DNA from: an uncultured candidatus Porisulfidus sp.
GTDB taxonomy: Bacteria; Pseudomonadota; Gammaproteobacteria; Poriferisulfidales; Poriferisulfidaceae
Assembly (NCBI GenBank): GCA_965116025.1
Contig: OZ220480.1
Coordinates: forward strand, 1,951,447 to 2,015,446
Length of the DNA stretch: 64,000 nt
Direction of reading: 5' to 3'
Below the pieces are notes generated by a model, which was not told the DNA's origin, ran no database searches, and worked only from the letters and a program-made list of their open reading frames with translations. Position numbers and translations under genes: made by a program. Every line of letters begins with the position of its first letter. The stretch's first letter is position 1. Below are positions 1-34,648 of the stretch, piece by piece.

Positions 1-2
1 GA

Positions 3-1709
3 CTTATCTCTGCCGCAATCAGCCGATGTGCAACCCACTGGTCGTCTGGAACAATGTGGATACAGGACCTCGAAGCTGTAGCAAATATATTTGGCCGACA
101 AGCATTACCTATCGTTTGGGATTTTGCAGAAGCATGCGGTTTCGGCGACGGTGGAGCGACTTTAGATGGACAAGTTAGCTGGATTGCCAAAGTGGCGGGG
201 CAACTTCCCATTCGAAAAGCAGCAAACATACAAGCTTCAGATGCCGCTGACTACCCACTCCCGGATCAAAGCGCAACTATCTGGTTTACGGATCCACCTT
301 ATTACGATGCCGTTCCGTATGCCGACTTATCCGATTTTTTTATGGTTTGGCTAAAGCGCGGTCTGCCCAATCACCCTCTCTTGCGTGACCCCTACGATCC
401 AAACAACCCTCTTACGCCCAAGGACCGTGAAGCAGTACAGGACGAAACAAAGAAAAATGATGGTCGCTCCAAAGATCGTTCATGGTTCGAGGAAACTATG
501 GCGAAAGCGTTCACCGAGGGAAGGCGCGTTCTTACCAAGGATGGTGTTGGTTCTGTCGTATTCGCCCACAAGACCACCGAAGGATGGGAAGCACTGCTCT
601 CGGGCATGATCCAAGGCGGCTGGACCATCACAGGTTCTTGGCCAATTGCGACCGAACGAGCTGCCCGAATGCGTGCCCATGACTCGGCTGCCCTCGCTAC
701 CAGTATCCACCTCATTTGCCGCCCGCGCTCGAGTGATGCTCTAGTCGGTGAATGGGCTGAAGTGCTTCGCGAACTTCCCTTACGGGTTTCCAAATGGATG
801 GATCGACTTCAAGGGGAAGGTGTTCGTGGAGCAGACCTTGTCTTCGCATGTATCGGGCCTGCAATTGAGATTTTCAGTCGCTACCAGACTGTCGAGACCG
901 CGGACGGTCGGAGTGTCGGCCTCCCAGAATATTTAGAGAAAGTCTGGGAAGTCGTAGGGCGTGCAGCACTTGAACAAGTGCTTGGCGTGACTGAAGCTAC
1001 CGCCCGCAGCGGCATGGCTGGCGCGCTGGAGGAAGATGCTCGCTTGACCGCCTTGTTTCTATGGACTCTCCAGAGTACTGAAGAATTTCGAATGGGGAAT
1101 GATCGAGAGGGTTCCGTTGCCAGCCATCCAGCGGTAACCGAAAATGCTACGCCTAAGGAGTTAGATGGAAAAGATGAAGAAGCCGTCACCAAAGCAACAA
1201 TGAAAGGGTTTCACCTTCCCTTTGACGTAGTACGGCGTTTCTCTCAACCCATGGGCATTGATCTCGAACGTTGGACCGGAAGGATTATTAGCCAAGAAAA
1301 AGGCATTGTGTGGTTGCTTCCGATCACGGAACGGGTGAAATCACTCTTCGGAGACGAAGGTTCCGCAAGTGTTGCCGAATGGGTCGATAACCACCCGGCC
1401 GACGATACGCAAGCGGTCCTCTTTCCCGACCTTGATATACCTGCCTCGCCGGGACATCAACCAAGCAGAAATGCACAAGATACCGACCCTATTCTGCAAT
1501 CATCTGATGCCACAATACTTGACCGAATCCACGCTGCCATGTTGTTGCAAGTAGGCGGTTATGCAAATGCCTTGCGGACGTTGATCTTCCAAGAACAGGA
1601 ACGAGGACCAGATTTCTTGCATCTCGCAAACGCGCTTTCCGCGCTCTACCCACGCGGTAGCCGCGAGAAAAGAATCTTGGATGCCATGCTTCTAGCCGTA
1701 CCAAAGTGA
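3..1709 (+). CDS. DUF1156-family N6-adenine DNA methyltransferase, C-terminal part (5' end lies outside window)
   Basis: Reading frame is open from position 3 through the listed ATG at 54. DPPY methylase motif (FTDPPYYDAVPYADLSDFF) is present. Protein resembles the COG1743/DUF1156 methylases that pair with DUF499 ATPases. Lower GC than the rest of the window. Confidence 0.7.
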   Translation, partial: LISAAISRCATHWSSGTMWIQDLEAVANIFGRQALPIVWDFAEACGFGDGGATLDGQVSWIAKVAGQLPIRKAANIQASDAADYPLPDQSATIWFTDPPYYDAVPYADLSDFFMVWLKRGLPNHPLLRDPYDPNNPLTPKDREAVQDETKKNDGRSKDRSWFEETMAKAFTEGRRVLTKDGVGSVVFAHKTTEGWEALLSGMIQGGWTITGSWPIATERAARMRAHDSAALATSIHLICRPRSSDALVGEWAEVLRELPLRVSKWMDRLQGEGVRGADLVFACIGPAIEIFSRYQTVETADGRSVGLPEYLEKVWEVVGRAALEQVLGVTEATARSGMAGALEEDARLTALFLWTLQSTEEFRMGNDREGSVASHPAVTENATPKELDGKDEEAVTKATMKGFHLPFDVVRRFSQPMGIDLERWTGRIISQEKGIVWLLPITERVKSLFGDEGSASVAEWVDNHPADDTQAVLFPDLDIPASPGHQPSRNAQDTDPILQSSDATILDRIHAAMLLQVGGYANALRTLIFQEQERGPDFLHLANALSALYPRGSREKRILDAMLLAVPK

Positions 1710-1846
1710 CATCATGGAATCGAAAGCACGTCCGAAGGACAGAAAATCCTTGAATCTCTCTGGCTGGCAAGTCTTCCCTCGAACTAGCCATTTTCCGCTA
1801 CAGGTTTTACAATCTCACTCACGTTTTGAAACGCAAGGAGAACAAC

Positions 1847-2104
1847 ATGACGGAAGAAACCGAACTGCTGAGGCGAATCACTGTCCGGCCCGATATCTTT
1901 GGCGGCAAGCCGATCATACGCAATATGCGAATCGCGGTGGAACATGTCTTGGCCAATCTAGCGGCAGGAGAAACGGTTGAGGACCTGCTAGAAAACTATC
2001 CATTCCTTGAGCAGGAAGATATCCAAGCATGCTTGCTCTTCGCTCACCGCTCATTAGCTGGAGAACATGTACATGACCGCATCATCGATCAAAGAACTTC
2101 GTGA
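1847..2104 (+). CDS. DUF433-domain protein, antitoxin-like partner of DUF5615
   Basis: Sequence ...RPDIFGGKPIIRNMRIAVEHVLANLAAGETVEDLLENYPFLEQEDIQACLLF is typical of DUF433. An AAGGAG SD lies just upstream of the second in-frame ATG, so the start is placed at 1847 rather than 1826. Stop overlaps the start of the next gene (ATGA). Confidence 0.8.
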   Translation: MTEETELLRRITVRPDIFGGKPIIRNMRIAVEHVLANLAAGETVEDLLENYPFLEQEDIQACLLFAHRSLAGEHVHDRIIDQRTS

Positions 2105-2478
2105 AATTTCTCCTCGATATTTGCGCCACATCGCAAGTACTACGTTCATGCTTGGTAGAACTTGGGCATGATGTCTTATCCGCACGAGACTGTTTTTCCC
2201 ATGCATCAGACGAAGCGTTACTGGAATTCGCCTGCAGGGAAAGTCATGTGCTCATTACCGAGGACAAGGATTTCGGTGAGCTTGTCTTTCTGCATGGCTT
2301 GCCTCATCCATCTATTGTGCGGCTTGTCGGGATGACTCCGACAGAAAGGGCGGATGCTATGCGAAATCTGATTGAGTGCCATGCGGATGCCATACGCAAG
2401 AGCTCAATAATCGTGGTGACCAGAAAATGCGTGCGGATACGGTCGGCAAGAAACCTTGGGAGCGTCAACAATGGCTAG
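2101..2478 (+). CDS. DUF5615-domain protein, PIN-like toxin partner of DUF433
   Basis: MKFLLDICATSQVLRSCLVELGHDVLSARD...ITEDKDFGELVF matches the DUF5615 family consensus (MKFLLDENL...DKDFGELV). Translationally coupled to the upstream DUF433 gene. Confidence 0.8.
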   Translation: MKFLLDICATSQVLRSCLVELGHDVLSARDCFSHASDEALLEFACRESHVLITEDKDFGELVFLHGLPHPSIVRLVGMTPTERADAMRNLIECHADAIRKSSIIVVTRKCVRIRSARNLGSVNNG

Positions 2479-5239
2479 GAGCCCTTGGTACAAAGTCGTT
2501 ACGCCGCGATCAGAAGTGCGGGAAGGTCGCTCATTCAGCCCAGACGAGTTCGCGATTGCCCTTGAGCAGGTGGTCGCGGGAACCGCCCCCTTGGATTACC
2601 GTGACCCTGCGCAATTCTTCTCGCGAACATGTTTTACTCGCGCCTTCAAGGAACATGCTGGTATGGTGCTTCGCCGTCTTGCAGGCGAGACGCAAAACAC
2701 GTCCCCGGTGCTTACCCTCGTTACCCAGTTTGGCGGAGGAAAGACCCACACGCTCACTGCGCTCCACCATCTCGCCAATGCCGGCTCACGGGCCAAAAGC
2801 CTGCCCGGCGTATCTGATCTCCTGGCTGAAGCGGGAATCTCCAAGCCACCTGATGCGCGAGTTGGTGTCTTCGTAGGTAATGCGTGGGACCCCACCGAAG
2901 GGCGTGAAACACCATGGATTGACCTAGCCTACCAAATAGCTGGTAACAGAGGTGTCGCCGCGCTTGGATCGACCGCAAAAACAACTCCACCTGGAACCGA
3001 GTCGCTCGCCCGGGTCTTCGCTGCCGTGGATGCTCCCGTACTGCTGCTGTTTGACGAGGTTCTGAACTTCGTTAACCGGCATCGGGACAAGGCTGAAAGC
3101 TTCCATGCCTTCATACAGAACCTGGCGGTCGCCGTCACCGGAACCACTGAGACGGTCACCGTCATAAGCCTGCCACGAAGTCAGGTGGAGATGACCGATT
3201 GGGATCAGCAATGGCAAGATCGGATCACAAAAGTAGTGAGGCGCGTCGCGCGTGACCTCATCGCCAACGATGAAGCCGAAATTGGCGATGTCGTTCGCCG
3301 GCGCCTGTTTGAGAACCTCGGCGATGAGAAAATTCGAAAACAAGTCTCAAAAATCTATGCTGATTGGTGTTTTGAACGAACTGCTCGGCTTCCCTCTGAA
3401 TGGATGGCGACCGACAGTGCCCCGCCGGAAACCAAAGCGCGGGAGTTTCTGATGGGCCGTTTCGAAGCTTGCTATCCTTTCCATCCCTCGACTCTCTCAG
3501 TTTTCCGAAGAAAATGGAGTGCGCTCGCGCAATTCCAGCAAACCCGTGGTACGCTTGCGATGCTTGCCCAATGGGTATCTTGGGCCGCACGCCAACAATT
3601 TCAGCAAGCCCGAACGGAACAGCTGATCACGCTCGGGTCGGCACCACTGCATGTGCCCGAGTTTCGCGCTGTCGTGCTTGGGCAACTAGGTGAGCAACGG
3701 TTGGATGTGGCCATAGCCGCCGACCTAGCGAGTCCCACGGCGCATGCCCGAGCTCTAGATATCGATACTCGGGGACCAATCAGGGACATACATCAGCGGG
3801 TGGGAGCGGCCATTCTCTTCGAGTCTTCTGGAGGACAAGTAGACAAAGTGGCTCACTTGCCCGAACTGCGTTTCGCCCTTGGTGAACCCGAAATCGAAAC
3901 CACAACCATTGATAACGCTGCGGGGGCATTAGAAGCATCAGGGTTCTTCATCCGCAAAGTCGGAACGGATGGTTTCCGCATCCACCATCAAGCGACCTTG
4001 AAAAAAGTTGTTAACGACCGTCGTGCCACGCTTGACGAAGAAACAGAAATTCGGCCTGTAATTCGTAAATTAGTGGAAGAGGAATTCACCCGAGGTGCCA
4101 ATCTTCCGGTTATACCCTTCCCTGATGACGGCGCAACTATCCAAGATGCGCCACGTCTGATACTGGTCCTCGTCGACCCAGAAGCGGAATGGGAACTCGG
4201 TGGGAAAACAGCAAAAAAAATCGAACGATGGACCAAAGAGAGAGGAACTTCGCCAAGGCTGCATCCTGCGTCCTTGGTCTGGTGTGCCAAAAAACCAGGG
4301 CGGGAACTCAAGAATCGCGTCGAGATGTGGCTTGCTTGGCGACGAGTCTCTTTGGATGTCGCGGAAGGTGTGCTCGGGACGGAATTTGGTCGCGCTGATC
4401 AAAACGAATTGCAGTCCAAAGTCAGAGATGCCGAAAATGCCGCGAGAGACGAAGTATGGGCCAGCTATCGATTCGTCGCTCTCGCCGATGCCAGAGCCGA
4501 ATCCGGACTTAAAATGATTGATCTTGGAGCCGGGCATAGTAGCGCGAGTGAAACACTCTGCGGAAGGGTGTTAACCGCGCTCAAGACCGAAGCCCTGCTA
4601 AGTGAAACCATCGGTGCTGGTTACCTCGACCGGCATTGGCCACCAGCATTCAAGGAGACCGGCGCTTGGCCACTAACCAGCCTGCGGCAAAGCTTTCTCA
4701 ACGGCTCCCTGACTCGGCTCATTGATCCCGATACCGCCCTGCGGCAAAAGATCGTTGAATTCGTCGAGAAAGGAGATTTTGGGCTCGCTTCGGGAACACT
4801 GGCAAGCAGCCAATACGAACATCTATGGTACATGGAGCCAGTCGAGGCTGAGGAGGTCGCTTTCGAGAAAAATGTCTTCCTGTTAACCAAAGCACGAAGC
4901 GAGGAATTGCGAATGCCAGTAGCACCAGAGCCAAAGCCATATTCTGTAACGCCACCACCGTCCACACCTGATCCTGGCAGCGTGGATGAATTCGAATCAG
5001 AGACTAACATGTCTGATGAGCCTGTTCAATTACGTGTGCATGGAACCATACCCCCAGAACTGTGGAATCGCCTCGGCACAACGGTCATTCCAAAACTCCG
5101 CTCCGGTGATGAGCTGAAAACGCAAGTAGAAGTCAGCGTCAAAGTTGCCGCGCCCATGGCGGCAGCCTTACAGACGGATATCCAGCAAACCCTGACCGAG
5201 TTAAATCTTGATGGCCAAGTAAGTGTTGAGTGCTCTTGA
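2456..5239 (+). CDS. DUF499-family P-loop ATPase, BrxC/PglY-like defence ATPase
   Basis: 927-aa ORF with Walker A TQFGGGKTHTL. Large ATPase adjacent to the DUF1156 methylase, a conserved defence-island pairing (COG1483/COG1743). Lower-GC region. Confidence 0.75.
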   Translation: MGASTMARSPWYKVVTPRSEVREGRSFSPDEFAIALEQVVAGTAPLDYRDPAQFFSRTCFTRAFKEHAGMVLRRLAGETQNTSPVLTLVTQFGGGKTHTLTALHHLANAGSRAKSLPGVSDLLAEAGISKPPDARVGVFVGNAWDPTEGRETPWIDLAYQIAGNRGVAALGSTAKTTPPGTESLARVFAAVDAPVLLLFDEVLNFVNRHRDKAESFHAFIQNLAVAVTGTTETVTVISLPRSQVEMTDWDQQWQDRITKVVRRVARDLIANDEAEIGDVVRRRLFENLGDEKIRKQVSKIYADWCFERTARLPSEWMATDSAPPETKAREFLMGRFEACYPFHPSTLSVFRRKWSALAQFQQTRGTLAMLAQWVSWAARQQFQQARTEQLITLGSAPLHVPEFRAVVLGQLGEQRLDVAIAADLASPTAHARALDIDTRGPIRDIHQRVGAAILFESSGGQVDKVAHLPELRFALGEPEIETTTIDNAAGALEASGFFIRKVGTDGFRIHHQATLKKVVNDRRATLDEETEIRPVIRKLVEEEFTRGANLPVIPFPDDGATIQDAPRLILVLVDPEAEWELGGKTAKKIERWTKERGTSPRLHPASLVWCAKKPGRELKNRVEMWLAWRRVSLDVAEGVLGTEFGRADQNELQSKVRDAENAARDEVWASYRFVALADARAESGLKMIDLGAGHSSASETLCGRVLTALKTEALLSETIGAGYLDRHWPPAFKETGAWPLTSLRQSFLNGSLTRLIDPDTALRQKIVEFVEKGDFGLASGTLASSQYEHLWYMEPVEAEEVAFEKNVFLLTKARSEELRMPVAPEPKPYSVTPPPSTPDPGSVDEFESETNMSDEPVQLRVHGTIPPELWNRLGTTVIPKLRSGDELKTQVEVSVKVAAPMAAALQTDIQQTLTELNLDGQVSVECS

Positions 5240-5740
5240 TCCAAGTAGATCACATAGGAAAAGGCTTTGAGCCAATCAACTCCCTTGAAGCCAATCAGCC
5301 ATCAACGTCGTGGGAACGAGTCTGCGTATTGCCAACCATATCGATGAACTGGCTGAGGCCGTCGTTCCCTGCCAATTTTCCTTCTCGTAGAGAATCGCGT
5401 CAAGCCTCGTATTTTCCACTCCGCACCCGCATCTCTCGGCACGTACCGGGCCGCCAGATCAGCAAAGGTCTGCGCCATCCGACCAACCCTCGCCCGATGA
5501 CTGCCGGGCTAACAATCAATATCGCAATCGTCGCCGCCGAAGAGCCAAGCGAGACCGAAAACAATAGCGAGAAATTTCCACATAGCGAAAGCGTTTATCC
5601 AAATAGCCGAATCAGAAGCAATCACTTCGCGAAGCGCGCCTCGTCTCCCAATGCCAGACCGTTTTTGGGCCTAACGCACTTGCATTTTACCAAACGCTCA
5701 TAATCCTTGTCGCGGCCAGCCTACCGCCAAGGAAAGAAAC

Positions 5741-5974
5741 ATGACGGAAACCGAACTTCTGAGCCACGTCACCTCGCGGCCCGATATTTTCGGCGGCAAG
5801 CCGATCATACGCGGCATGCGAATCGCGGTGGAGCATGTCTTGGCCAATCTGGCGGCGGGAGAGACGGCCAAGGATTTGCTGAAAGACTATCCATTCCTTG
5901 AGGCGGAAGATATCCAGGCATGCTTGCTCTTCGCCCAGCGCTCGCCGGCGCCCTCTCATCGCGCGAAGACCTGA
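5741..5974 (+). CDS. DUF433-domain protein, second copy, orphan (no DUF5615 partner)
   Basis: Protein is ~85% identical to the 1847..2104 product (MTETELLSHVTSRPDIFGGKPIIRGMRIAVEHVLANLAAGE...). Nucleotide direct repeat with 1846-2045. Its C-terminus diverges where the GC content rises. Confidence 0.65.
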   Translation: MTETELLSHVTSRPDIFGGKPIIRGMRIAVEHVLANLAAGETAKDLLKDYPFLEAEDIQACLLFAQRSPAPSHRAKT

Positions 5975-6378
5975 TCTGGATCGCGGAACGCCTTGAACTC
6001 CAGCATGTTGCCAGACGGGTCGCGCGCGAACGCGGTCGCCTGCTCCCCAGTCTCTCCCTGAAAGCGGACGGTCGGCTCCAACTCGAAGGCCACGCCGCAG
6101 GCGCGCATGCGATCCACCAGCTCCTCCCACCGCTCCCATTCCAGAATCAGCCCGAAATGGGGCACGGCGATCTCCTCCCCATCGACCGAATTACGGATCT
6201 CATCCCGGGCCGCGTCACGCCGATGCGCCGTGATCTGGTGTCCCATCAAGTCGAAATCGATCCACGTCTCGGACGACCGTCCGATGCGACACTGCAGCAC
6301 CCCGGCGTAAAAGGCTTCCGCCGAGGACAGATCATCGACCGCGATCGCCAGATGAAACCGCGGATGTCCCGCGCTCAT
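5956..6378 (-). CDS. VOC family protein (glyoxalase/bleomycin resistance/dioxygenase fold)
   Basis: 140-aa ORF with VOC-like sequence (HLAIAVDDLSSAEAFYAGVL...). Start overlaps the tsaB stop (ATGA-type coupling). Confidence 0.7.
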   Translation of the reverse strand: MSAGHPRFHLAIAVDDLSSAEAFYAGVLQCRIGRSSETWIDFDLMGHQITAHRRDAARDEIRNSVDGEEIAVPHFGLILEWERWEELVDRMRACGVAFELEPTVRFQGETGEQATAFARDPSGNMLEFKAFRDPDQVFAR

Positions 6379-7040
6379 CCGCGCACCGGATGCCGCAGGT
6401 AGGCCGGCTGGGCCTCTCCGAAACTCGCCGTCCGCCCCGCCTGAAAATCCCGCGACGCGAGATCCAGGACCGAACGCGCGTCAGGTCGCATTCCGGGCGC
6501 GACGGCCCGTCCCGCTTTGGCGATCTCGCGCATGCCGGGCAGGTCCCAGCCGGACCCCGCGCCCAGCCAGCCTCCAGGCAACGAGGACAGTCGCGCGCGA
6601 AGTTCGGATGGCGGCGACAGCGATTCCGGATGCAGCTCTGAAATCTCGTCGTCGTCCACCTCGAACATCGCCCAGTAAACCTCGTCCAAACGCGCGTCCA
6701 CCGCCACCAGCGCCGGCGAGATCCGGCGATCGCGCCATGCTCCTTGGGCCAACGCCGCCAGCGAGGACACCGGCAGCAGAGGAAGGCCACGGGCGACCGC
6801 CATCCCCTGCGCCAGCGCGGTGGCGACGCGCACGCCGGTGAACGTCCCCGGGCCACGACCGAACGCCACCGCGTCCAGATCCTCCGCCGTCGCGTCCGCC
6901 TCGCGGAGCAACTCGTCCACCTGTCCCAAGATATGCCGGGTATGCTCCCGCGGCGTGATCCGGTCGCGCGCAACGACGCTCCCGCGCGCGGCCAAGGCCA
7001 CCGAGCACAACTCGGTGGACGTCTCCAACGCCAGCGTCAC
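6375..7040 (-). CDS. tsaB: tRNA threonylcarbamoyladenosine biosynthesis protein TsaB
   Basis: LALETSTELCSVAL...GPGTFTGVRV motif set of TsaB/YeaZ. The six-frame ORF extends to 7148, but the in-frame GTG at 7040 gives the canonical N-terminus (MTLALETSTE) and abuts the dinG stop. Confidence 0.8.
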   Translation of the reverse strand: MTLALETSTELCSVALAARGSVVARDRITPREHTRHILGQVDELLREADATAEDLDAVAFGRGPGTFTGVRVATALAQGMAVARGLPLLPVSSLAALAQGAWRDRRISPALVAVDARLDEVYWAMFEVDDDEISELHPESLSPPSELRARLSSLPGGWLGAGSGWDLPGMREIAKAGRAVAPGMRPDARSVLDLASRDFQAGRTASFGEAQPAYLRHPVRG

Positions 7041-7051
7041 CAGGCCGTCGC

Positions 7052-8977
7052 TCACGCGACCCGCTCCCGCAAAAACGCCAGCGTCTGGTCCAGATCGGAA
7101 CTGACCGGCATGTCCGGCAGACTGGCCCGGAGCTGGCGACCGTACCATTTGCTTCGCAGACGCGGGTCGGCGATCACGGCCACGCCCTGATCCGTCACGC
7201 TACGGATCAGCCGGCCCACGCCTTGCTGCAGCATCAGCGCGGCCCGCGGCAGCTGCAACTGGCGGAACGGGTCGCCACCCGCCGCGCGAACCGCGTTCTC
7301 GCGGGCCCGGTAGAGCAGGTCCGTGTGCGAGGTGAACGGAATCTTGTCGATGATCACGCAACTGAGCGCCGGGCCGCGGATGTCCACGCCCTCCCAGAAT
7401 CCGATCGATCCGAGCAGCACCGCGTCCGAGCGCTCCGCGAAACGCTCCAGCAGCTTCCGCCGCGGCGCCTCACCTTGCCGGAGCAGCGCGCAGTCGATTC
7501 GCCCTTCCAACCACCGTCCGGCCTCCTCAAGCGCGCGCAGACTAGTGAACAGCAAGAACGTCCGGCCGCGCAATTGCTCGATCAACGGGAGCACGCTCTC
7601 GAGCATGGCCTCGTTGTAACCAGGTTCGCGCGGGTCCGGCAGATCTGGAGGAAGGTACAGCCGCGTCCGCTCCCGGAAATCGAATGGACTGTCGAGCCGC
7701 AAGGTCTCGGTGTTCTCGTCCAGGCCCAGCTTGCGCAGGAAGTAGTCGAAGTCTCCCCCGACCGACAGGGTCGCGGAGGTGAGCACCCAGCGCGGCGCGT
7801 ACCGCGCCCGCGCCTGCGCGAACATGTCGCTGATGTCGACCGGCGTCTGGTGCAAGGAGAATCCCTGCCGGGTGAGCGTCAAGTATTCGCAGCAGTCCGC
7901 CTCTCCGCTCGGCCATCCGTCCAGGTCCTCCACCGCTCGCGCGCAACGCTCGGCGAGCTTCTCCATTTCCGGGTCGTCCGCGCTTCGGCTTTCGAGCTCT
8001 TCGCGCAAGGCTTTCAGTTCCGTCAGCAACGGCTTCGCCCATTCGGGAAAGTCCGGCGGCGGCGGAACGCGCTCGCCCAGCGCCTCGCCGCTCAGCCGGG
8101 CGCGGGTCCGGTCGATCACCTGCCGCGTGGCGCGCCGCGTGGCGCGCGCGCCCGAGACCAGCGCCGGGCCCTCCTCCGGCGCACGACGACCCGCCGCCTC
8201 CACGTCGCGGCACAATTGCTGGATCTTGGCGGTGCCCAACTGGTGGCTCCAGAAGACTTCCAGCGCCTCAGCCAGCCGATGCGCCTCATCGAACACCAGC
8301 ACGTCGAACTCCGGCAGCAGCTCGCCGAGCGAGTCCTCGCGCAACGCGAGGTCCGCCGCGAACAGGTGGTGGTTGGCCACCACCAGATCGGCCCGCCTCG
8401 CCCGCTCGCGGGCCCGAACCACGAAGCAGTCCTCGTAGTCTGGACACTTCTTCCCGAGGCAGTTCTCCAGCGTCGACGTGATGGCCGGGACGATCTCGTC
8501 GTCTTCCGGCAGGTCCATTTCCGCGAGATCGCCGTCGCGAGTCGTCTCCGTCCAGTTCCGCAGCGCTCGCGTTCGCTCGTCCTCGCCGCGTCCCAAAGTT
8601 CCGTCCACGTGAATTCGGTAGCGATGAAGGCACAGATAGTTGGCGCGACCTTTCAACAAGCATACCCTGGGGGCGGCGCCGTCGGCCGCCCGAAGCGCGA
8701 CCGGAAGATCCTTCTGAAACAACTGGTCTTGCAGGTGGCGGGTGCCCGTGGCGATCAAGGTCTTGCGCCCGAACGCCAGCGCGGGCATCAGATAGGCGAG
8801 CGTCTTGCCGACCCCGGTGCCGGCCTCCACGGCCAGCGCGCGCTCCCTGCGCATCGCTCCCCACACGGCCATGGCCATATCCTCCTGCTGCGCGCGCGGA
8901 TGGTAGTCGAGAATCTCCCGAGCCATCCGCCCATCCTCGCCGAAGCAAGCCTCCGCGTCGAACTCCCGCGTCGACAC
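7052..8977 (-). CDS. dinG: ATP-dependent DNA helicase DinG/YoaA family
   Basis: 641-aa ORF with helicase motifs (VEAGTGVGKTLAYL, DEAH-like VLVFDEAHRL) and a C-terminal helicase domain. Confidence 0.85.
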   Translation of the reverse strand: MSTREFDAEACFGEDGRMAREILDYHPRAQQEDMAMAVWGAMRRERALAVEAGTGVGKTLAYLMPALAFGRKTLIATGTRHLQDQLFQKDLPVALRAADGAAPRVCLLKGRANYLCLHRYRIHVDGTLGRGEDERTRALRNWTETTRDGDLAEMDLPEDDEIVPAITSTLENCLGKKCPDYEDCFVVRARERARRADLVVANHHLFAADLALREDSLGELLPEFDVLVFDEAHRLAEALEVFWSHQLGTAKIQQLCRDVEAAGRRAPEEGPALVSGARATRRATRQVIDRTRARLSGEALGERVPPPPDFPEWAKPLLTELKALREELESRSADDPEMEKLAERCARAVEDLDGWPSGEADCCEYLTLTRQGFSLHQTPVDISDMFAQARARYAPRWVLTSATLSVGGDFDYFLRKLGLDENTETLRLDSPFDFRERTRLYLPPDLPDPREPGYNEAMLESVLPLIEQLRGRTFLLFTSLRALEEAGRWLEGRIDCALLRQGEAPRRKLLERFAERSDAVLLGSIGFWEGVDIRGPALSCVIIDKIPFTSHTDLLYRARENAVRAAGGDPFRQLQLPRAALMLQQGVGRLIRSVTDQGVAVIADPRLRSKWYGRQLRASLPDMPVSSDLDQTLAFLRERVA

Positions 8978-8979
8978 GG

Positions 8980-9456
8980 TCAGTCGATGTCCTCGAGCAA
9001 CGCCACGGCATGCGCGGCGACGCCCTCGCCCCGACCCAGCGCGCCGAGGCCCTCATGCGTAGTCGCCTTGAGGTTGACCCGCTCCTCGTCGATCCGCAAC
9101 AGACGCGCCAAGGACCGGAGCATGGTCTCGCGGTGCGGAGCGAGACGCGGAGCCTGCGCGATCACCGTGACGTCGACGTTGGAGACGCGCAACCCGCGCG
9201 CGTGGATCTTCCGCAACACGTCGCGCAGCAAGTCGCCGCTGGCGGCATCGCGGTAGCGGGGATCGTGGTCTGGAAAGTGCTGGCCGATATCGCCAAGTCC
9301 AGCCGCCCCCAGCAAAGCGTCCATCAGCGCATGCAGCGCCACGTCGCCATCGGAGTGCGCCACCACCGCGCGGTCGTGCGCGACGCGCTCGCCACAGATC
9401 CAGAGACCGTCTCCGGCAGTCAGGGCATGAACGTCATAGCCGTGTCCAATACGCAT
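8980..9456 (-). CDS. ispF: 2-C-methyl-D-erythritol 2,4-cyclodiphosphate synthase
   Basis: MRIGHGYDVHAL...HSDGDVALHAL...DIG is the IspF signature. Confidence 0.9.
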   Translation of the reverse strand: MRIGHGYDVHALTAGDGLWICGERVAHDRAVVAHSDGDVALHALMDALLGAAGLGDIGQHFPDHDPRYRDAASGDLLRDVLRKIHARGLRVSNVDVTVIAQAPRLAPHRETMLRSLARLLRIDEERVNLKATTHEGLGALGRGEGVAAHAVALLEDID

Positions 9457-10147
9457 GATCCGGATCCTGTCGCAAAATCGCTTCCGCCCGGGCGAGGTCC
9501 CCGGGCCACGTCACCTTAATATTATCCTCGCGCCCGACGACCAACCGCGGGAAGCGGCCGCAATGCTCCATCGCCCGCGACTCGTCGGTGATCTCGACGC
9601 CATCGTCCAACGCCGCGCGCAGGCATCGACTCAGCTCCTCCATCTCGAACAGTTGCGGCGTCTGCGCTCGCCACAGGCCACGCCGATCCTCGCTCGCGGT
9701 GACCCTCCCCTCCTCGGCGCGCTTGAGGCTGTCCGTCACCGGAACCGCGAGCAGAGCTCCGGGCGCGTCGGCCTCGCGCAGCAATCTCTCGACGTCCGAG
9801 CGCCACACGCACGGGCGCGCGACGTCGTGCACCAGCGCCCAAGCCCGATTCCCGACGCGCTCGAGCATGGCTTCCAGCCCGCGCAACACGGTCTCCGCGC
9901 GGCTCGCGCCTCCAGACATCTCCCGGAACTCCACCTCCGGCGGCAATGGCGGAGGAGCGCCGCCGAGCGCGGACTCCGGGAGGAGCAGAGTAACGCTGCG
10001 CACCATCGGGGCGCACATCGCCAGCGGCCGGAGCGCGTAGTCCAGAATTCGCCGCGTCCCGAGCGGCGCGTTCCACTTGGCCCCGCCGAAGCGCTCGCCT
10101 CGACCGCCTCCCGCCAAGATCGCGTGCACCTCCCGCGCGTCGTCCAT
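9434..10147 (-). CDS. ispD: 2-C-methyl-D-erythritol 4-phosphate cytidylyltransferase
   Basis: The C-terminal 237 aa of the 669-aa track ORF (from MDDAREVHAILAGGGRGERFG) match IspD. An ATG at 10147 was verified in the sequence. The upstream extension of the ORF overlaps ftsB and eno in another frame and is an artefact. Confidence 0.85.
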   Translation of the reverse strand: MDDAREVHAILAGGGRGERFGGAKWNAPLGTRRILDYALRPLAMCAPMVRSVTLLLPESALGGAPPPLPPEVEFREMSGGASRAETVLRGLEAMLERVGNRAWALVHDVARPCVWRSDVERLLREADAPGALLAVPVTDSLKRAEEGRVTASEDRRGLWRAQTPQLFEMEELSRCLRAALDDGVEITDESRAMEHCGRFPRLVVGREDNIKVTWPGDLARAEAILRQDPDHAYWTRL

Positions 10148-10155
10148 CGGCGGGC

Positions 10156-10482
10156 TCACGGAGTCCCGGGCGCCGCGAGCGTGGACGACTCGGGCGGGCG
10201 CTCTTCCAGGTCGGGGCCGACTAATTGATAAAACGCCTCGTCCTCCCGGACCATGCCGAGGCGGTCGCGCGCCAGTCCCTCGATCCCTTCCAGCCCGGAA
10301 CGCAACTCTCGCAGTTCCGCCGACAAGACACGGTTGCGCTCGGCCAATTCGCCATTCTCCTCTTTCAGCCGCCGAACCTCGCCCATTTGGTCCCACAAGC
10401 TCAGCAAGCCGCCGTCGCCGGCCACCAGCAGATACAGCAGACCCGCGAGCGACGCCATCATCAGCCAGTTCCACGCGCGCAT
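10156..10482 (-). CDS. ftsB: Cell division protein FtsB (septum formation initiator)
   Basis: 108-aa ORF with an N-terminal TM segment and a coiled-coil (RRLKEENGELAERNRVLSAELRELR). Conserved eno-ftsB-ispD-ispF order. Confidence 0.75.
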   Translation of the reverse strand: MRAWNWLMMASLAGLLYLLVAGDGGLLSLWDQMGEVRRLKEENGELAERNRVLSAELRELRSGLEGIEGLARDRLGMVREDEAFYQLVGPDLEERPPESSTLAAPGTP

Positions 10483-10500
10483 CGCGGGAAGCCCGAGAGA

Positions 10501-11829
<1,329 letters not shown>

Positions 11830-11856
11830 TCATTGTACCGAAAGAGGAGCGGTCGC

Positions 11857-12174
11857 TCATGACCAGTCCGAGTCTCGAGCGCGGAGACGCCGCCACCAGC
11901 GCCCAATCCGCCGGCCGCGATCGCCCGCCTCGCGCTTCGCCCGGTCTAGCAACCGCTTGGCCCAAGGAAACTCTGTGGCTAGCGCCGCCAACCCGATCAG
12001 AATCACCGCCAGTCCTGGCCCCGGCGTGACCAGCATGATCATTCCTACCAGCGTCACTCCAGCGCCGACGACCAGCACGATCAAACGTCGCAGGCCAGCG
12101 ATCACCGGCTCCTCGCGATGGTCGGCGCCAGCGATCCGCGCGGCCAAGCGTCGCAGGGGAACCAGCAGCTTCAC
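11857..12174 (-). CDS. PGPGW-domain small transmembrane protein
   Basis: C-terminal LVTPGPGLAVILIGLAALATEFPWAKR matches the PGPGW family. The start is inferred at the in-frame GTG at 12174, immediately after the dcd stop. The longer ORF in the track (to 12501) overlaps dcd and was rejected. Confidence 0.45.
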   Translation of the reverse strand: MKLLVPLRRLAARIAGADHREEPVIAGLRRLIVLVVGAGVTLVGMIMLVTPGPGLAVILIGLAALATEFPWAKRLLDRAKREAGDRGRRIGRWWRRLRARDSDWS

Positions 12175-12176
12175 GC

Positions 12177-12743
12177 TCAGGCCCGCGGCAAGGTGACGCC
12201 GGTTTGCTTCTGGTACTTGCCTCCCCGATCCGCGTACGAGGTCTCGCAGAGCTCGTCCGTCTCGAAAAAAACCAGTTGCGCCACCCCCTCGTTGGCGTAA
12301 ATCTTGGCCGGCAGCGGCGTCGTGTTGGAGAACTCCAGGGTGATGTGGCCCTCCCACTCCGGCTCCAATGGAGTCACGTTGACGATGATCCCGCACCGGG
12401 CGTAGGTGGACTTTCCGAGGCAGATCGCCAGCACCGCGCGCGGCACCCGCAGGTACTCGACGGTGCTGGCCAGGGCGAAGGAATTCGGTGGGATTATGCA
12501 CACCTCGCCCTCGTAGTCCACGAAGCCGTCCTCCGCGAAGCGCTTCGGGTCCACCATCGCGGAATTAATGTTGGTGAATATCTTGAAATGCGTGGAGCAA
12601 CGGACGTCGTAGCCGTAGCTGGAGGTGCCGTAGGAGATGACCCGCCGGTCCCGGGAGCGACGCACCTGGGTCGGCTCGAACGGCTCGATCAGGCCCTCCC
12701 GCTCGGCCATGCGCCGGATCCAGCGGTCCGACTTGACTCCCAC
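12177..12743 (-). CDS. dcd: dCTP deaminase
   Basis: 188 aa with characteristic Dcd sequence (…[13 protein letters not shown]…[21 protein letters not shown]…). Confidence 0.9.
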
Positions 12744-12744
12744 G

Positions 12745-13833
12745 TCAGTCGTTCTGGATGACGATGCGCGGGAATTTGGCGCTGTAGTCTTTCGCCCGCT
12801 CCGCCAGCCGCGCGGCCGCGCGGCGCGCGATGTCCCGGTAGATCTGGCTGATCCGGGAGTCCGGATCCGCGATCACGGTCGGCTTCCCGCCGTCGGTCTC
12901 CTCCCGGATGCGCCGGTCCAGCGGCAACTGTCCGAGCAGCTCCACGTCGTTCTCGCGCGCCAGGCTCTCGCCGCCGCCGGAGCCGAAGATCGGCTCCTCG
13001 TGGCCGCACTGGTTGCAGATGTGCAGGCTCATGTTCTCCACCACGCCCAGCACCGGCACCTCGACCTTGCGGAACATCTTGAGTCCCTTGCGCGCGTCCA
13101 GCAACGCGATGTCCTGCGGCGTGGTCACGATGATCGCCCCGCTGACGGGAATTTTCTGCGCGAGCGTCAGTTGCGCGTCGCCCGTGCCTGGCGGCAGATC
13201 CACCACCAGGTAGTCCAGCCCGCGCCAGCGCGTGTCGCCGAGCATCTGCTCGAGCGCCTGGGTCACCATCGGGCCGCGCCAGATCATCGGCGTCTCCTCG
13301 TCGATCAGGAATCCGATCGACATGGCCTGCAGGCCGTGGCTCTCCATCGGCTCCAGGCTCTTTCCGTCTCTCGACTCCGGCTGCCCGGAGACGCCCAGCA
13401 TCCGCGGCTGGCTCGGTCCGTAGATGTCCGCGTCCAGCACGCCGACCTCGGCGCCCTCCTCGGAAAGCGCCAGCGCCAGATTGATCGCCGTGGTGGACTT
13501 GCCGACGCCGCCCTTGCCGGAGGCGACCGCCAGCACGTTCTTGACGCTCTCCATCGGCTTGAGGTTCTTCTGCACCGAATGCGACTCGATCTCCCACCTC
13601 ACGTCGACCTCGACGCGCTCGCCGCCATCCAGCCGCGCGAGGCGCGCCCGCGCGGCCCGCTCCAGCTCGTCGCGGACCCCCCGGGCTGGATAGCCGAGCC
13701 GGATCTCGACCCGGGCCGAGTCGCCGTCCACCACCACGTCCTTGAGCGCCCGCGCCGCCACCAGGTCCTTGCCGGTCCCGGGGTCCTTCACGTCCTTGAG
13801 CGCGCTCTCTATTCGCTCCTTGCTCAGCGCCAT
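12745..13833 (-). CDS. apbC: Iron-sulfur cluster carrier protein ApbC/Mrp
   Basis: P-loop [21 protein letters not shown] and CNQCGH motif. Divergent from metG as in many proteobacteria. Confidence 0.9.
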
Positions 13834-13898
13834 CGCGGTCTCTCCTCGCCTCGAAATTCTTCCCGTCCGCTTTCCATTATACGGGCGCGGCCGCTACA

Positions 13899-15926
13899 AT
13901 GGCGCGGCGAACCGCCTCTCGTCCAATGCCCTCTCCACGCCGCATCCTGGTCACCAGCGCCCTGCCCTACGCCAACGGGCCGATCCACCTGGGCCACCTG
14001 GTGGAGTATCTGCAGACCGACATCTGGGTTCGATTTCAGCGCTCGCGCGACGTGGAATGCTCCTACGTGTGCGCCGATGACGCGCACGGCACGCCGATCA
14101 TGCTGCTCGCGCGCGAGCGCGGGATCAGCCCCGAGCGACTGATCGAGGAGATCGGGCGACAGCACCGCGCCGACTTCTCCGATTTTCTGATCGAGTTCGA
14201 CCAGTATCACAGCACGCACAGCGAGGAGAATCGCCAGCTGGCGCGCAGCGTCTTCCAGACCCTGTCCGAGGCCGGGCACATCCGCCGCAAGACGATCTCG
14301 CGGTACTTCGACCCCAGCGCCGGGATGTTCCTTTCCGACCGCTACCTGCGCGGCACCTGCCCGCGCTGCGGCGCCGAGGAGCAGTACGGGGACGCCTGCG
14401 AGCGCTGCGGCGCGACGTACGACTCGAGCGAGCTGGTCAACCCGCGCTCGACGCTCAGCGACGCGCCCCCCGAGCTTCGGGAGACCGAGCATCTGTTCTT
14501 CCGCCTCGGCGACTTCGCCGAGACGCTCCGGAGCTGGGCCGAGCGCGGCGGCGTGCAACCGGAGATCAAGAACAAGCTCGACGAGTGGTTCGAGGCCGGG
14601 CTGCGCGACTGGGACATCAGTCGGGACGCGCCATACTTCGGCTTCGAGATCCCCGACGCGCCAGGGCAATATTTCTACGTCTGGCTCGACGCGCCGATCG
14701 GCTACATGGCCAGCCACCTGCGCCTATGCCGGGAGCGGGGCCTCGATTTCGACGACTACTGGCGCGCCGACAGCGAGACCGAGCTGTACCACTTCATCGG
14801 CAAGGACATCGCCTACTTCCACACCCTGTTCTGGCCCGCCCTGCTGCGCGGCGCCGGATACCGGTTGCCGACCGCGGTGTGGTGCCACGGCTTCCTCACC
14901 ATCAACGGCGAGAAGATGTCGAAGTCCACCGGCACCTTCATCGAGGCGCGCGCCTACCTGCGTCACCTCGACCCGGAGCACCTGCGCTACTACTTCGCCA
15001 CCAAGCTGTCGCCCGCCATCAGCGACATCAACCTGAACCTGGACGACTTCGTCGCGCGCGTCAACAGCGACCTGATCGGCAAGGTCGTGAACATCGCCAG
15101 CCGCTGCGCCGGCTTCATCGAGAAGCGGTTCGGCGGACGGCTCGCGAAGCGGCTTCCGGACCCCGCCCTGTTCTCGGAGTTCGCGGCGGCGGCGGACGGA
15201 TTGGCCGAGCGCTACGAGACGCGGAGCTTCTCCCAAGCCATGCGCGAGATCATGGCGCTGGCCGACCGCGCCAACCAGTACGTGACGCGGCAGAAACCCT
15301 GGGAGACGGCGCGCGCGGAGGCCACCCGCGAGCGGGCCTGGGAGGCATGCACCCAAGGCATCAACCTGTTCCGCACGCTGATCGTCTACCTGAAACCCGT
15401 GTTGCCCACGCTCGCCGCCAAAAGCGAGGCCTTCCTCGACTCCGGCCCGCTCGACTGGGAAGCCTGCCAAACGCCTCTTCTGGACCGCCCGATCCGACCG
15501 TTCGCCCCTCTCTCCACCCGAATCGATCCGAAAGACGTTCGCGCCATGGTCGAGGAAACCAAGGCCGCCAGCGCCCCTCCGAGGCCAGAAGCCGCGCGTC
15601 CCGACTCCATCCCGTATGAAGACTTCGCCAAGATTGATCTTCGGGTCGCCCGAATCGAGGAAGCGCGCGAGATCAAGGGCGCCGACCGACTGCTGGCGCT
15701 GACTCTGGACCTGGGCGACGGGCGCCGTCAGGTGATCGCCGGCATCCGCTCCTCCTACGCCCCGGAGCGCTTGCTCGGACGATTGGTCGTGGCGGTCGCC
15801 AACCTGGAACCGCGACGGATGCGCTTCGGCACGTCCGAAGGCATGATTCTGGCCGCTGGCGACAACGAGGGCATCTGGCTGCTGAGTCCAGACGAGGGCG
15901 CCCGTCCCGGCATGAAGATTCGGTGA
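13899..15926 (+). CDS. metG: Methionine--tRNA ligase
   Basis: 675 aa with HIGH-type motif ([15 protein letters not shown]), KMSKS, Zn knuckle cysteines and a C-terminal tRNA-binding domain. Confidence 0.95.
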
Positions 15927-16327
15927 GCGTCGCCCGAGTCGCCTGGATCGATCTTCCACGGTGCGTGGGCTGCGCCCTGTGCGTCGAGGCCTGTCCATTC
16001 GACGCCATCGCCGGGGTCGCCGAGCGAGCTCATCGCGTGATCCCGGGGTTGTGCACGGAATGCGGGCTGTGCCTTCCAGCCTGTCCGGTCGACTGCATCT
16101 CCCTGCGTCCGGACCCGGCGCACCCGACCCGCGACCGCGACTACCGCCGGCAGGCGCGCGACCGGGCGCGACGGCGCCTGCGGCGCCGGGCGGCGCTGCG
16201 CGAGACGCGAGAGAGCCAGCTACGGGAGGCTCACGCCGGATTCCGCGACGACGACGATGCCGCGCGGCGGGCCGCTATCCACGAGGCCGTCGCCCGAGCG
16301 CGCGGAAGCGCGGCATCCCCCAGCTGA
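15923..16327 (+). CDS. 4Fe-4S dicluster ferredoxin (RnfB C-terminal-like)
   Basis: Two CxxCxxCxxxCP motifs. Stop overlaps the nth start (TGATG), as in rsxB-nth arrangements. Confidence 0.7.
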
Positions 16328-16959
16328 TGGACGAGCGCCAAGTCGAGCGAATTTTCCAGCGCTTTCGCGATCTGCGCCCGCACCCGACCACCGAGCTGCG
16401 CTACCGCGACGAATTCGAGCTGCTCATCGCGGTCATCCTGTCCGCCCAGTGCACGGACGTCGCGGTCAACAAGGCGACGACGAAACTGTTCGCCCGCGCC
16501 CACGCGCCCGAGACCATCCTGGCGCTCGGAGTCGAGGGCCTCATCCCGTACATCCGCACCATCGGCCTGCACAACAGCAAAGCCGCGAACATCATCGCCA
16601 CCTGCCAAATCCTTCTCGAGCGGCATGGCGGAAAAGTGCCGCGCGACCGAGAATCCCTGCAGGCGCTGCCCGGAGTCGGGCGAAAAACCGCGAACGTCGT
16701 CCTGAACACCGCGTTCGGAGAGCCCGTCATCGCGGTGGACACTCATATCTTCCGGGTCGGCAACCGCGTCGGCCTCGCGCCGGGGCGCACCCCCCGCGAG
16801 GTGGAGGACGGCCTGACGCGCCTGGTGCCCGAGGCATTCCTCAAGAACGCTCATCACTGGCTGATCCTGCATGGGCGGCACACCTGCACGGCGCGCGCGC
16901 CGAAGTGCTCGGAGTGCGGAATCTCGGACCTGTGCGAATGGCCGGAGCGGAATCCGTGA
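16327..16959 (+). CDS. nth: Endonuclease III
   Basis: HhH-GPD motifs LPGVGRKTANVVL and a C-terminal 4Fe-4S Cys cluster (CTARAPKCSECGISDLC). The longer track ORF from 15961 was rejected as out of frame with the ferredoxin gene. Confidence 0.9.
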   Translation: MDERQVERIFQRFRDLRPHPTTELRYRDEFELLIAVILSAQCTDVAVNKATTKLFARAHAPETILALGVEGLIPYIRTIGLHNSKAANIIATCQILLERHGGKVPRDRESLQALPGVGRKTANVVLNTAFGEPVIAVDTHIFRVGNRVGLAPGRTPREVEDGLTRLVPEAFLKNAHHWLILHGRHTCTARAPKCSECGISDLCEWPERNP

Positions 16960-17075
16960 GAGGCGGCGCCGGGAAGGGAACCAACGAGCGGCGCGCGAGT
17001 CATAGCGTTTGCTACAATCCGAGCGACGACGCACGCGTCGTCTTTCATTAAATTTTTCAAGGAGCGCTTGACACC

Positions 17076-17405
17076 ATGAACCAGAAAGAACTCAATCCCA
17101 TCGCCCTGGCCCTGGGCCTCACGGGCGCGCTGGCCTGCTCCAGCGCCGTCGCCGCCGATAACCCGTTCAGCCTGACCGAGCTGTCTGGACAGACCTACGC
17201 CGGCTCGCACGGAGGCGAGGGCAAATGCGGCGAAGGCAAGTGTGGCGAGGATAAAGATGCCGGCGAGGGCAAGAAGAAAGAGAAATGCGAGGGCCGATGC
17301 GGCGAGGGAAAATGCGGCGAAGGCAAGTGTGGCGAGGATAAGGACGCCAGCGAGGGCAAATGCGGCGAAGGCAAATGCGGCGGAGACGCCGGCGAGGGCG
17401 AATAA
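17076..17405 (+). CDS. hvfA: HvfA/Buf2-family (EGKCG-repeat) secreted RiPP metallophore precursor
   Basis: Sec signal peptide (MNQKELNPIALALGLTGALACSSAVAA), then a low-complexity core with 9 Cys in (G)EGKCGE repeats. AAGGAG SD lies 11 nt upstream. Followed by DoxX, DUF692 and DUF2063 genes. Confidence 0.75.
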   Translation: MNQKELNPIALALGLTGALACSSAVAADNPFSLTELSGQTYAGSHGGEGKCGEGKCGEDKDAGEGKKKEKCEGRCGEGKCGEGKCGEDKDASEGKCGEGKCGGDAGEGE

Positions 17406-17513
17406 CGCCCGCCTCCCGATTCCCGAAGAGCCCGGCCTCGCTCGGGCCCTTCGGGAACCCCGCCCCCGGAGACGACGGGCTCCAGCCCTGTCCATGACCG
17501 AGACTCCGGCCTC

Positions 17514-18957: not shown

Positions 18958-18960
18958 CCG

Positions 18961-34610: not shown

Positions 34611-34630
34611 AGCCTCAGCACCCCATATAA

Positions 34631-34648
34631 GGGGGGGGGGGGGGGGGG
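34631..34648. repeat. Homopolymeric tract: 18 consecutive G (poly-C on the autotransporter coding strand)
   Basis: Directly read from the sequence: ataa + G18 + tatgag. Lies 20 nt upstream of the GTG start of the autotransporter, between TTGCCT (-35-like) and TTATAT (-10-like) hexamers. Confidence 0.9.

Follow-up and report, generated by a model that had tools for sequence, protein, structure and literature searches.

The distal part of a probable Hma anti-phage operon, with a predicted toxin-antitoxin pair between hmaB and hmaC, in a low-GC island of an uncultured candidatus Porisulfidus

Introduction

The stretch of 64,000 nucleotides (nt) analysed here, positions 1,951,447 to 2,015,446 of contig OZ220480.1 (assembly GCA_965116025.1) from an uncultured candidatus Porisulfidus sp. 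and hereafter called the window, opens inside the gene of a DNA adenine methylase that is followed on the same strand by the gene of a large P-loop ATPase, and the question is whether two such genes make up a defence module of their own or belong to a system that is already known. An earlier note, made from the letters of the window alone, took them for an uncharacterised methylase-ATPase module; the defence role has stood, but the pair corresponds to hmaB and hmaC of the known three-gene system Hma. We conclude that nt 1-5959 are very probably the distal portion of an Hma operon gained by horizontal transfer, i.e., a type-1 DUF499-centred anti-phage operon related to the bacteriophage exclusion (BREX) systems. 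It is an ordinary case of an already described three-gene system that the window edge happens to cut, rather than a methylase-ATPase pair of an uncharacterised kind.

Hma was named in 2021 as a candidate system of PADLOC by Payne et al. (PMC8565338), and the HmaA protein of Halomonas meridiana was tested experimentally in 2024 by Liu et al. (PMC11232893); hmaA alone protects Escherichia coli from phage T4, and both its nuclease (nickase) and its helicase domains are required. In 2026, the system was reclassified by Rakesh & Krishnan as a type-1 DUF499-centred BREX-related (BR) system (PMC12839542).

The methylase and ATPase genes

The visible 3' part of hmaB (3..1709, + strand) encodes the C-terminal portion of a DUF1156-type N6-adenine DNA methyltransferase. 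Its frame is open from nt 3 and runs to a stop codon at 1707-1709, which gives 568 codons instead of the 551 residues reported earlier, and homology with relatives is present from the first residues of the fragment. The catalytic DPPY motif (motif IV) is located at 291..302 on the + strand within the translation FTDPPYYD. The PADLOC HmaB profile matches the fragment with an E-value of 1.2e-55 over profile positions 481-800 of 967 and the DUF1156_MTase profile with 5e-17, the other PADLOC match being the generic MTase_II. In an alignment with the full-length HmaB of one relative (L006), the fragment corresponds to residues 433-1004, and about 432 codons, including those of the N-terminal DUF1156 domain, are thus predicted to lie upstream of the window. 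The Pfam scan of the fragment gave no match because the DUF1156 domain is N-terminal and off the window; in L006, which is 66% identical, Pfam DUF1156 is matched at 1.6e-21. Identity to the hmaB of 78 genome loci ranges from 57% to 70% across the full length of the fragment.

The second core gene, hmaC (2471..5239, + strand), encodes a DUF499 AAA+/STAND-type ATPase of 922 residues. The longest open reading frame (ORF) begins at TTG 2456 and does have the 927 codons previously given, but ATG 2471 is the more likely start because the database gene call (P0001) and the aligned homologues agree on it. The PADLOC HmaC profile covers residues 9-817 of the 927-residue ORF (3.4e-90, 302 bits), against 62 bits for the generic 'DUF499' model of PADLOC (PDLC02192), and Pfam DUF499 matches the product at 4.3e-15. 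In the translation, the Walker A motif GGGKT (2732..2746, + strand) and the Walker B motif LLLFDE (3041..3058, + strand) are both present, with G88-T92 and D195 and E196, respectively, invariant among 112 homologues. The search with HmaC returned 6029 homologues at E<=1e-10, of which the closest non-self one is 82% identical. The profile searches proposed in the earlier note therefore bore out its DPPY methylase and its DUF499/BrxC-like P-loop ATPase through DUF499 and the PADLOC HmaB and HmaC models, but not through Pfam DUF1156 on the fragment.

The last ~120 residues of HmaC (4871..5236, + strand) form a hypervariable region, in which a proline-rich linker is followed by an alpha+beta domain of ~70 residues. 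Identity to the homologues falls to 0.40-0.57 in this region against ~0.8 elsewhere, the column entropy is 1.3-2.0 instead of 0.2-1.0, and the region lies outside the coverage of the PADLOC profile. AlphaFold2 predicts residues 851-921 as strand-helix-strand-helix-strand with a predicted local distance difference test (pLDDT) of 62-86, within a whole-protein model that is poor; in type-1 BR systems, the variable C-terminal domain of the ATPase is RRM/ferredoxin-like. A profile search of PDB sequences with HmaC found nothing, and the weak top Foldseek matches of the model are ORC/Cdc6 proteins, the BrxC entries 9zdx and 9zll standing lower (ranks 22-43). Because the structure model and the fold searches are weak, fold-level claims on HmaC rest on the literature.

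Gene order in related loci

We compared the locus with 80 genome loci (L001-L080) chosen by HmaC at 65-81% identity and with 80 metagenome loci chosen by the HmaB fragment at 56-64% identity, the latter being an independent and more distant set. The order hmaA-hmaB-hmaC is kept across the 160 related loci, and the window has hmaB followed by hmaC, both on the + strand, as in Hma. Within the genome set, hmaB is co-oriented upstream of hmaC at 78 of the 80 loci, the other two ending at contig ends, and a gene for ~1150-1200 residues (hmaA) is located upstream of hmaB at 52 of the 80 and at every locus with at least 6 kb of upstream sequence (34/34). Metagenome loci with at least 6 kb carry hmaC downstream (19/19) and hmaA upstream (27/29), and hmaB is followed by hmaC at 56 of the 62 metagenome loci that extend at least 1.5 kb further downstream. 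The upstream proteins of the relatives match PADLOC HmaA at 1e-167 to 1e-176 and contain the Pfam domains SNF2-rel_dom and Helicase_C together with a C-terminal NOV_C domain (PD-(D/E)XK, about 1e-19).

No hmaA homolog was found anywhere in the 64-kb window, probably because the window edge cuts the operon. Because ~90% of the relatives with enough upstream DNA carry hmaA, we predict with great confidence that hmaA of this locus lies just upstream of the window start, beyond hmaB.

An ATPase and a methylase are common to several families of this kind, and the weak profile matches to PglX/PglXI (1e-4) and DUF499 could be taken as signs of another DUF499 or BREX subtype, namely type-2 BR (HKD/PLD helicase with DUF3780), type-3 BR (PglZ with inactive STAND), or canonical BREX. 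We hold this to be extremely improbable, as the HmaC and HmaB profiles score far above the alternatives; the NCBIfam equivalogs DUF1156_antiphage and DUF499_antiphage, which are listed beside a phospholipase-D-type anti-phage helicase model, reach 75 bits (cut-off 1000) and 89 bits (cut-off 1200), respectively. In addition, the helicases of the relatives carry NOV_C instead of PLD and match the PLD_Helicase profile via the shared helicase core only, and neither DUF3780, PglZ, BrxA, BrxB, nor BrxL was found between or after hmaB and hmaC among the island ORFs and in the profile scans. On the profile scores, the NCBIfam scores, and the lack of a DUF3780 or PglZ gene, types 2 and 3 of BR are excluded for the visible part. 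We also rejected a Type I/III restriction-modification system, as no Hsd or Mod profile of PADLOC was matched by the fragment and the upstream region of the relatives is not Type I/III, and the methylation-associated defence system (MADS), whose mad2 was matched only at 7.5e-4 and on a relative.

The HmaC homologues at 65-81% identity come from metagenome-assembled genomes (MAGs) of Latescibacterota, Binatia, Entotheonella, Dehalococcoidia, Acidobacteria, Spirochaetia, Alpha- and Gammaproteobacteria, Nitrospira, and other phyla. Among the loci are the bin names SB066x, CAR4, COS2, RHO3, and PNGco, which come from sponge metagenomes, and this distribution suggests that the cassette is exchanged intensely between phyla in sponge consortia.

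The DUF433/PIN-like pair between hmaB and hmaC

The gap of ~750 bp previously described between the two core genes is not a spacer. The interval of 746 bp is taken up by two small genes that had been overlooked. Another DUF433 gene, located where the island ends, had been missed as well. The first gene (1847..2104, + strand) encodes an antitoxin-like protein of 85 residues with a full-length DUF433 domain (COG2442; Pfam DUF433 7.5e-24), and the ORF, which is also open from TTG 1826, has an AAGGAG ribosome-binding site at 1835-1840 ahead of ATG 1847. The second gene (2101..2478, + strand) encodes a toxin-like nuclease of 125 residues from the PIN-like DUF5615/COG4634 (Mut7-C) group (Pfam DUF5615 1.4e-16, with weaker matches to PIN_10 at 8e-4 and Mut7-C at 9e-3), whose acidic residues D6, D24, D37, D55, D57, and E60 are at least 90% conserved among 22 orthologues. 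The stop codon of the DUF433 gene overlaps the GTG start codon of the PIN-like gene by 4 nt, and the stop codon of the latter overlaps the hmaC ATG by 8 nt. A weak sigma-70-like promoter match (TAGCCA-17-TACAAT, 1785..1813, + strand) in the 137-nt spacer between hmaB and the DUF433 gene is speculative; the promoter scan gave six sites versus 3.3 ± 1.7 in shuffled sequences, all of them weak with 9/12 consensus matches, and terminator-like sites were not above the shuffled expectation.

DUF433 (COG2442) together with a PIN protein of the Mut7-C group (COG4634/PIN_10) constitutes a VapBC-type toxin-antitoxin class (PMC5499597), which has been predicted, and partly validated, to be of type II, with further support for the DUF433/COG4634-type class in PMC2701414 and PMC3834315. 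The pair in the window is a predicted VapBC-like toxin-antitoxin by its domain content and gene arrangement. In the genome set, the hmaB-hmaC gap contains DUF433 at 39 of 78 loci (52-80% identical) and the PIN-like gene at 26 of 78, compared with 6 and 4 of the 60 metagenome loci, which are more distant. The PIN gene is immediately followed by hmaC in the window and at 20 loci, and the 4-nt and 8-nt junctions are identical in eight sequences (the window, L004, L006-L009, L011, and L017). The pair is present in Alpha- and Gammaproteobacteria, Dehalococcoidia/Chloroflexota, Acidobacteria, Spirochaetia, Entotheonella, Latescibacterota, and Syntrophobacterales, with PIN identities among the loci from 32% to 100%.

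The conserved coupling of the PIN-like gene to hmaC across phyla could be read in favour of the self-contained methylase-ATPase module of the earlier note, with the PIN-like nuclease possibly as the effector and without any helicase-nuclease. It is also true that the three genes do not always occur together, hmaA being accompanied by hmaB in 85% and by hmaC in 81% of cases (PMC11232893). However, every relative of the clade with enough upstream DNA has hmaA, and the sparse occurrence of the PIN pair (26/78 clade loci and 4/60 more distant loci) marks it as an accessory rather than a core effector; we therefore consider a self-contained module very improbable.

The role of the pair is a separate matter from the identity of the locus. 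A distinct possibility, at somewhat less than an even chance, is that the pair is a selfish toxin-antitoxin passenger in a known insertion hotspot, with no functional tie to Hma. Inserted genes are found in 66.5% of hma operons (PMC11232893), insertion hotspots within these operons are already published, and in the relatives, both intergenic slots carry varied cargo, including Schlafen-HATPase_c_4, DUF4276, HEPN with a minimal nucleotidyltransferase, ThsB-type TIR, GmrSD, and an SDH-type protease (for varied slot cargo, see also PMC11232893). Moreover, DUF433 copies exist outside the slot (5741-5974 in the window, and at L057 and L075), and an enrichment of COG2442 and COG4634 genes is a general feature of the genomes of sponge symbionts (PMC5649159). 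What speaks against a mere passenger is that the 4-nt and 8-nt junctions are kept even between phyla in which protein identity has dropped to 32-64%, and that the divergence of the pair tracks that of HmaC (Mantel r 0.41 for PIN and 0.37 for DUF433; 0 of 2000 permutations reached these values), which together suggest long co-inheritance and co-expression. The PIN and DUF433 proteins co-vary tightly (Spearman 0.87). The correlation of the pair with HmaC is below that between HmaB and HmaC (r 0.74), so that the pair appears to have been partly co-inherited and also exchanged.

An unlikely reading is that, in this clade, whose loci stem largely from MAGs of sponge and marine symbionts, the two genes are integral parts of Hma, its fourth and fifth components, with the PIN-like gene coupled to hmaC in translation through the conserved 8-nt overlap and with HmaC controlling the release of the PIN-like toxin from DUF433. 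It is equally doubtful, but conceivable, that in such an arrangement the PIN RNase gene is the split-gene counterpart of the HEPN domain that is fused to the N-terminus of the DUF499 ATPase elsewhere in type-1 BR. If the pair were integrated in this way, it could provide an abortive-infection back-up when a phage evades or inhibits the restriction arm of HmaA. 'Auxiliary and backup effectors' have been described in BR operons, where PIN RNases are 'less commonly observed' (PMC12839542), and DUF433 goes unmentioned in the main text of that paper and in those of its supplements that were searched.

The slots of the relatives vary widely in size, the intergenic spans being 0-4.7 kb between hmaA and hmaB and 53 bp to 5.7 kb between hmaB and hmaC. 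Individual examples are a PDC-M50A and ThsB-type TIR pair (L008, 5381-6290), HEPN with a minimal nucleotidyltransferase (L036, 2894-3644), Schlafen/AlbA_2-HATPase_c_4 (L062, 3582-4811), a GmrSD_N-Schlafen fusion (L068, 4684-6801), and DUF4276 (L055, 9327-9995); a further cargo family of ~320 residues without a Pfam match occurs in 12 loci (e.g., L047, 8239-9204). At several related loci, a second copy of the final 38-65 hmaB codons follows the inserted cargo (L014, 8029-8163, directly after the PIN stop codon; L022, 6037-6171; L033, 7552-7665; L070, 6619-6732 and 8126-8254; L015, 8824-9005; and L078, 6534-6728). These copies may be scars of cassette insertion or of recombinational exchange at the conserved hmaB 3' end. 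In contrast, no duplicate of the hmaB 3' end was found in the window.

The island edge and its insertion site

The inference of a low-GC island of foreign origin in the earlier note has been upheld. The GC content is 0.51-0.56 over nt 1-6000 versus 0.66-0.71 over nt 6001-20000, with a step from 0.54 to 0.69 at the junction, and horizontal acquisition is confirmed by an empty site in two related gammaproteobacterial genomes (L161 and L162), in which the glyoxalase gene is followed by mutL without any Hma genes. With 0.551 for hmaC against 0.681 for the flank, the GC deficit is the largest among 76 loci, whereas the cassette GC is near the flank GC in most other hosts. The gene order in L161 and L162 is ispD-ispF-dinG-like-tsaB-glyoxalase-mutL-miaA-hfq-hflX, and the Hma island has most probably been inserted between the glyoxalase gene and mutL, the latter being predicted off the window. 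The GC deficit, the empty site, and the junction data together suggest that the island was transferred recently and that its donor, of lower GC content, is absent from the collections.

The island ends ~720 nt after hmaC. Next to hmaC is a low-GC spacer of 488 nt that is part of the island (5240..5727) and contains no recognisable feature; it has no family match, and neither blastn nor tblastx found anything similar in the 80 genome loci. The spacer is followed by the second DUF433 gene (5741..5974, + strand; 77 residues, Pfam DUF433 4e-23), which has no PIN partner and whose native 3' end has been replaced at the junction. It belongs to a direct repeat, in which nt 5728-5943 and nt 1834-2052 share ~84% identity; the last codons of the gene have diverged. 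An alignment of 10.6 kb to the island-free L161 (80.7% nucleotide identity) ends at window nt 5960. The repeat end at 5943 and this alignment end at 5960 place the right-hand junction between island and chromosome at 5944..5959, coinciding with the GC step, at the 3' end of a host glyoxalase/VOC-family gene (5956..6378, - strand; Pfam Glyoxalase 1.8e-9) that flanks the island. The second DUF433 gene is cut short by this junction. At L057, too, a DUF433 gene begins ~470 nt after hmaC.

The host is a high-GC gammaproteobacterium. On the host side, a DinG-like helicase gene (7052-8977) is located in the flank outside the cassette, and its product is 75% identical to MAG proteins and ~45% identical to that of Thioalkalivibrio. 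At the same site as the island, between glyoxalase and mutL, L162 has a filler of 840 bp (13038-13878) with a GC content of 0.54 versus 0.62 for the locus, and L161 has only 85 bp; the glyoxalase-mutL site may have received insertions repeatedly in this lineage. There is no tRNA or tmRNA gene in the whole window and hence no tRNA-linked integration signature on the visible side, and Rfam gave no match for nt 1-7000.

Several ORFs were rejected as genes. ORF 5230-5703 (157 residues) has no Pfam or PADLOC match and no homologue in the related loci. ORF 1714-1980 (88 residues) and ORF 5687-6139 on the minus strand (150 residues) shadow the two DUF433 genes, out of frame or antisense; their 'homologues' elsewhere coincide with DUF433 genes. 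ORF 5920-6402 on the + strand is an antisense shadow of the glyoxalase gene.

Points against an Hma operon

A number of points weigh against reading the locus as an Hma operon. In the one experimental test, hmaB and hmaC were dispensable and hmaA was sufficient, and the infectivity of T4 was unchanged by HmaB overexpression (PMC11232893); the roles ascribed to HmaB and HmaC are putative. At the present locus, hmaA is not visible as the window begins within hmaB, and among the relatives hmaA is absent from 2 of the 29 informative metagenome loci, and L002 (5748-9594) is a decayed Hma locus. No identical locus was found in the genome and metagenome scans, in which the best matches are 81% (HmaC) and 64% (HmaB) identical. 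The AlphaFold2 model of HmaC, based on 112 homologues, is poor (pLDDT 61, predicted template modelling score 0.35), and Foldseek gave no match to it in the PDB at E<=0.001. Finally, the truncated DUF433 gene shows that the island has been rearranged, and the DUF433/PIN-like pair could be a purely selfish passenger.

Some of these points would also suit an incomplete or decaying remnant, that is, a relic of methylase, ATPase, and toxin-antitoxin genes that has no functional hmaA or a 5'-truncated hmaB: the region upstream of the window is out of view, the island edge cuts a gene, L002 shows that such loci erode, and hmaA is not universal in the metagenome set. Nevertheless, both visible core ORFs are intact and their motifs invariant, the strong GC deficit speaks for a recent arrival with little time to decay, and the informative relatives have hmaA in all (34/34) or nearly all (27/29) cases; a remnant is thus quite improbable, and we retain the Hma operon cut by the window edge.

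As to L002 itself, only residues 58-484 of hmaA and residues 1-191 plus the last 74 of hmaB are detectable, with DUF433-hmaC intact downstream, which shows that hmaC can outlast the erosion of the operon.

Proposed mechanism

For an Hma operon of this composition, HmaB would methylate adenine at N6 in a motif of the host DNA and thereby mark self. HmaC, by analogy with BrxC and the ORC/Cdc6-type ATPases, may recognise or load onto invader DNA and license the effector HmaA, combining a conserved ATPase core with a fast-evolving C-terminal domain. HmaA would then translocate on unmodified DNA and nick or cleave it, as has been partly shown for a homologue. The DUF433/PIN pair is probably co-transcribed with hmaC and translationally coupled to it, and may act as an addiction module that stabilises the island and/or as a back-up abortive-infection RNase; in the latter version, the PIN protein would be freed once expression of the labile antitoxin stops.

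Other genes of the window

The earlier note had stated that no restriction enzyme or helicase gene lies in the window. Both kinds are present, as the DinG-like helicase gene of the host flank and a type IIG gene, and neither belongs to the cassette. The type IIG gene (34761-38189, - strand) encodes a protein of 1142 residues that matches the PADLOC type IIG restriction enzyme-methyltransferase at 3.2e-30, with weak Pfam matches to N6_Mtase and MmeI_Mtase, and sits in a lower-GC stretch (34-39 kb, GC 0.56-0.63). By these matches, it appears to be a second defence gene of the window that is independent of the Hma cassette. Adjacent to it, a gene at 30912-34751 (- strand) encodes a protein of 1279 residues that is rich in proline at its N-terminus and contains three or more fibronectin type III domains (7e-28); the sequence at 31-33 kb has a GC content of 0.75-0.77 and a GC skew of -0.31 to -0.37. 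Eukaryote-like repeat proteins of the fibronectin type III kind are common in sponge symbionts.

Significance

The analysis corrects an annotation, as the orphan-looking pair is two thirds of a known three-gene operon and no new system is needed. It also documents a clean, datable acquisition: the right junction can be placed precisely, two relatives have the empty site, and the GC deficit amounts to 13 points. The only mildly new element is the recurrent coupled DUF433/PIN module that appears between hmaB and hmaC; for the arrangement hmaB-DUF433-PIN-hmaC with conserved overlaps across phyla, we found no description in the literature searched. As the biochemical roles of HmaB and HmaC are unproven, a compact natural variant with a coupled putative toxin could be an experimental handle, and the locus adds to the view of defence operons as scaffolds with internal cargo slots.

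Comparison with known systems

Compared with the described Hma systems, the proteins of the window find their best matches in PADLOC HmaB and HmaC, the relatives have an HmaA with Snf2 and NOV_C domains in the order A-B-C, and cargo between the core genes, a described property of hma operons, is present in the window as well. The cargo is different, however: in Halomonas, the hmaB-hmaC slot holds a pair of AAA_21 ATPases and the hmaA-hmaB slot holds Septu, whereas the former slot holds the DUF433/PIN-like pair in the window. The window also differs in having no visible hmaA and in the distance of its HmaC, at 82% identity, to the nearest homologue.

With the VapBC-type systems, such as VapBC45 of Mycobacterium tuberculosis and vapBC10 of Synechocystis, the pair shares small co-oriented genes with a 4-nt overlap and a DUF433 domain combined with a PIN-like domain that keeps its acidic residues. 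Unlike these examples, the pair of the window is located inside a defence operon, and the stop codon of the putative toxin gene overlaps the start codon of hmaC.

The likeness to type-1 BR systems consists of the DUF499 ATPase, the DUF1156 N6-methyltransferase, and, in the relatives, a Swi2/Snf2 helicase with a C-terminal PD-(D/E)XK nuclease, as well as an ATPase that is hypervariable at its C-terminus and auxiliary RNase effectors inside the operon. An N-terminal HEPN fusion, which 1370 of the 2446 type-1 taxa have (PMC12839542), is lacking in the ATPase of the window, where a separate PIN-like gene abuts the start codon of the ATPase gene instead. Type-3 BREX (BrxC, BrxXI/PglXI, BrxHII, and PglZ) and DISARM (defence island system associated with restriction-modification) DrmD have a homologous AAA+ ATPase, N6-methyltransferase, and Snf2 helicase, and the HmaA proteins of the relatives also match the DrmD (1e-116 to 1e-119) and BrxHI/HII (1e-111 to 1e-112) profiles. 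In contrast to type-3 BREX, the Hma cassette dispenses with PglZ, BrxA, BrxB, and BrxL, its methylase has a DUF1156 N-terminus, and its helicase carries its own nuclease.

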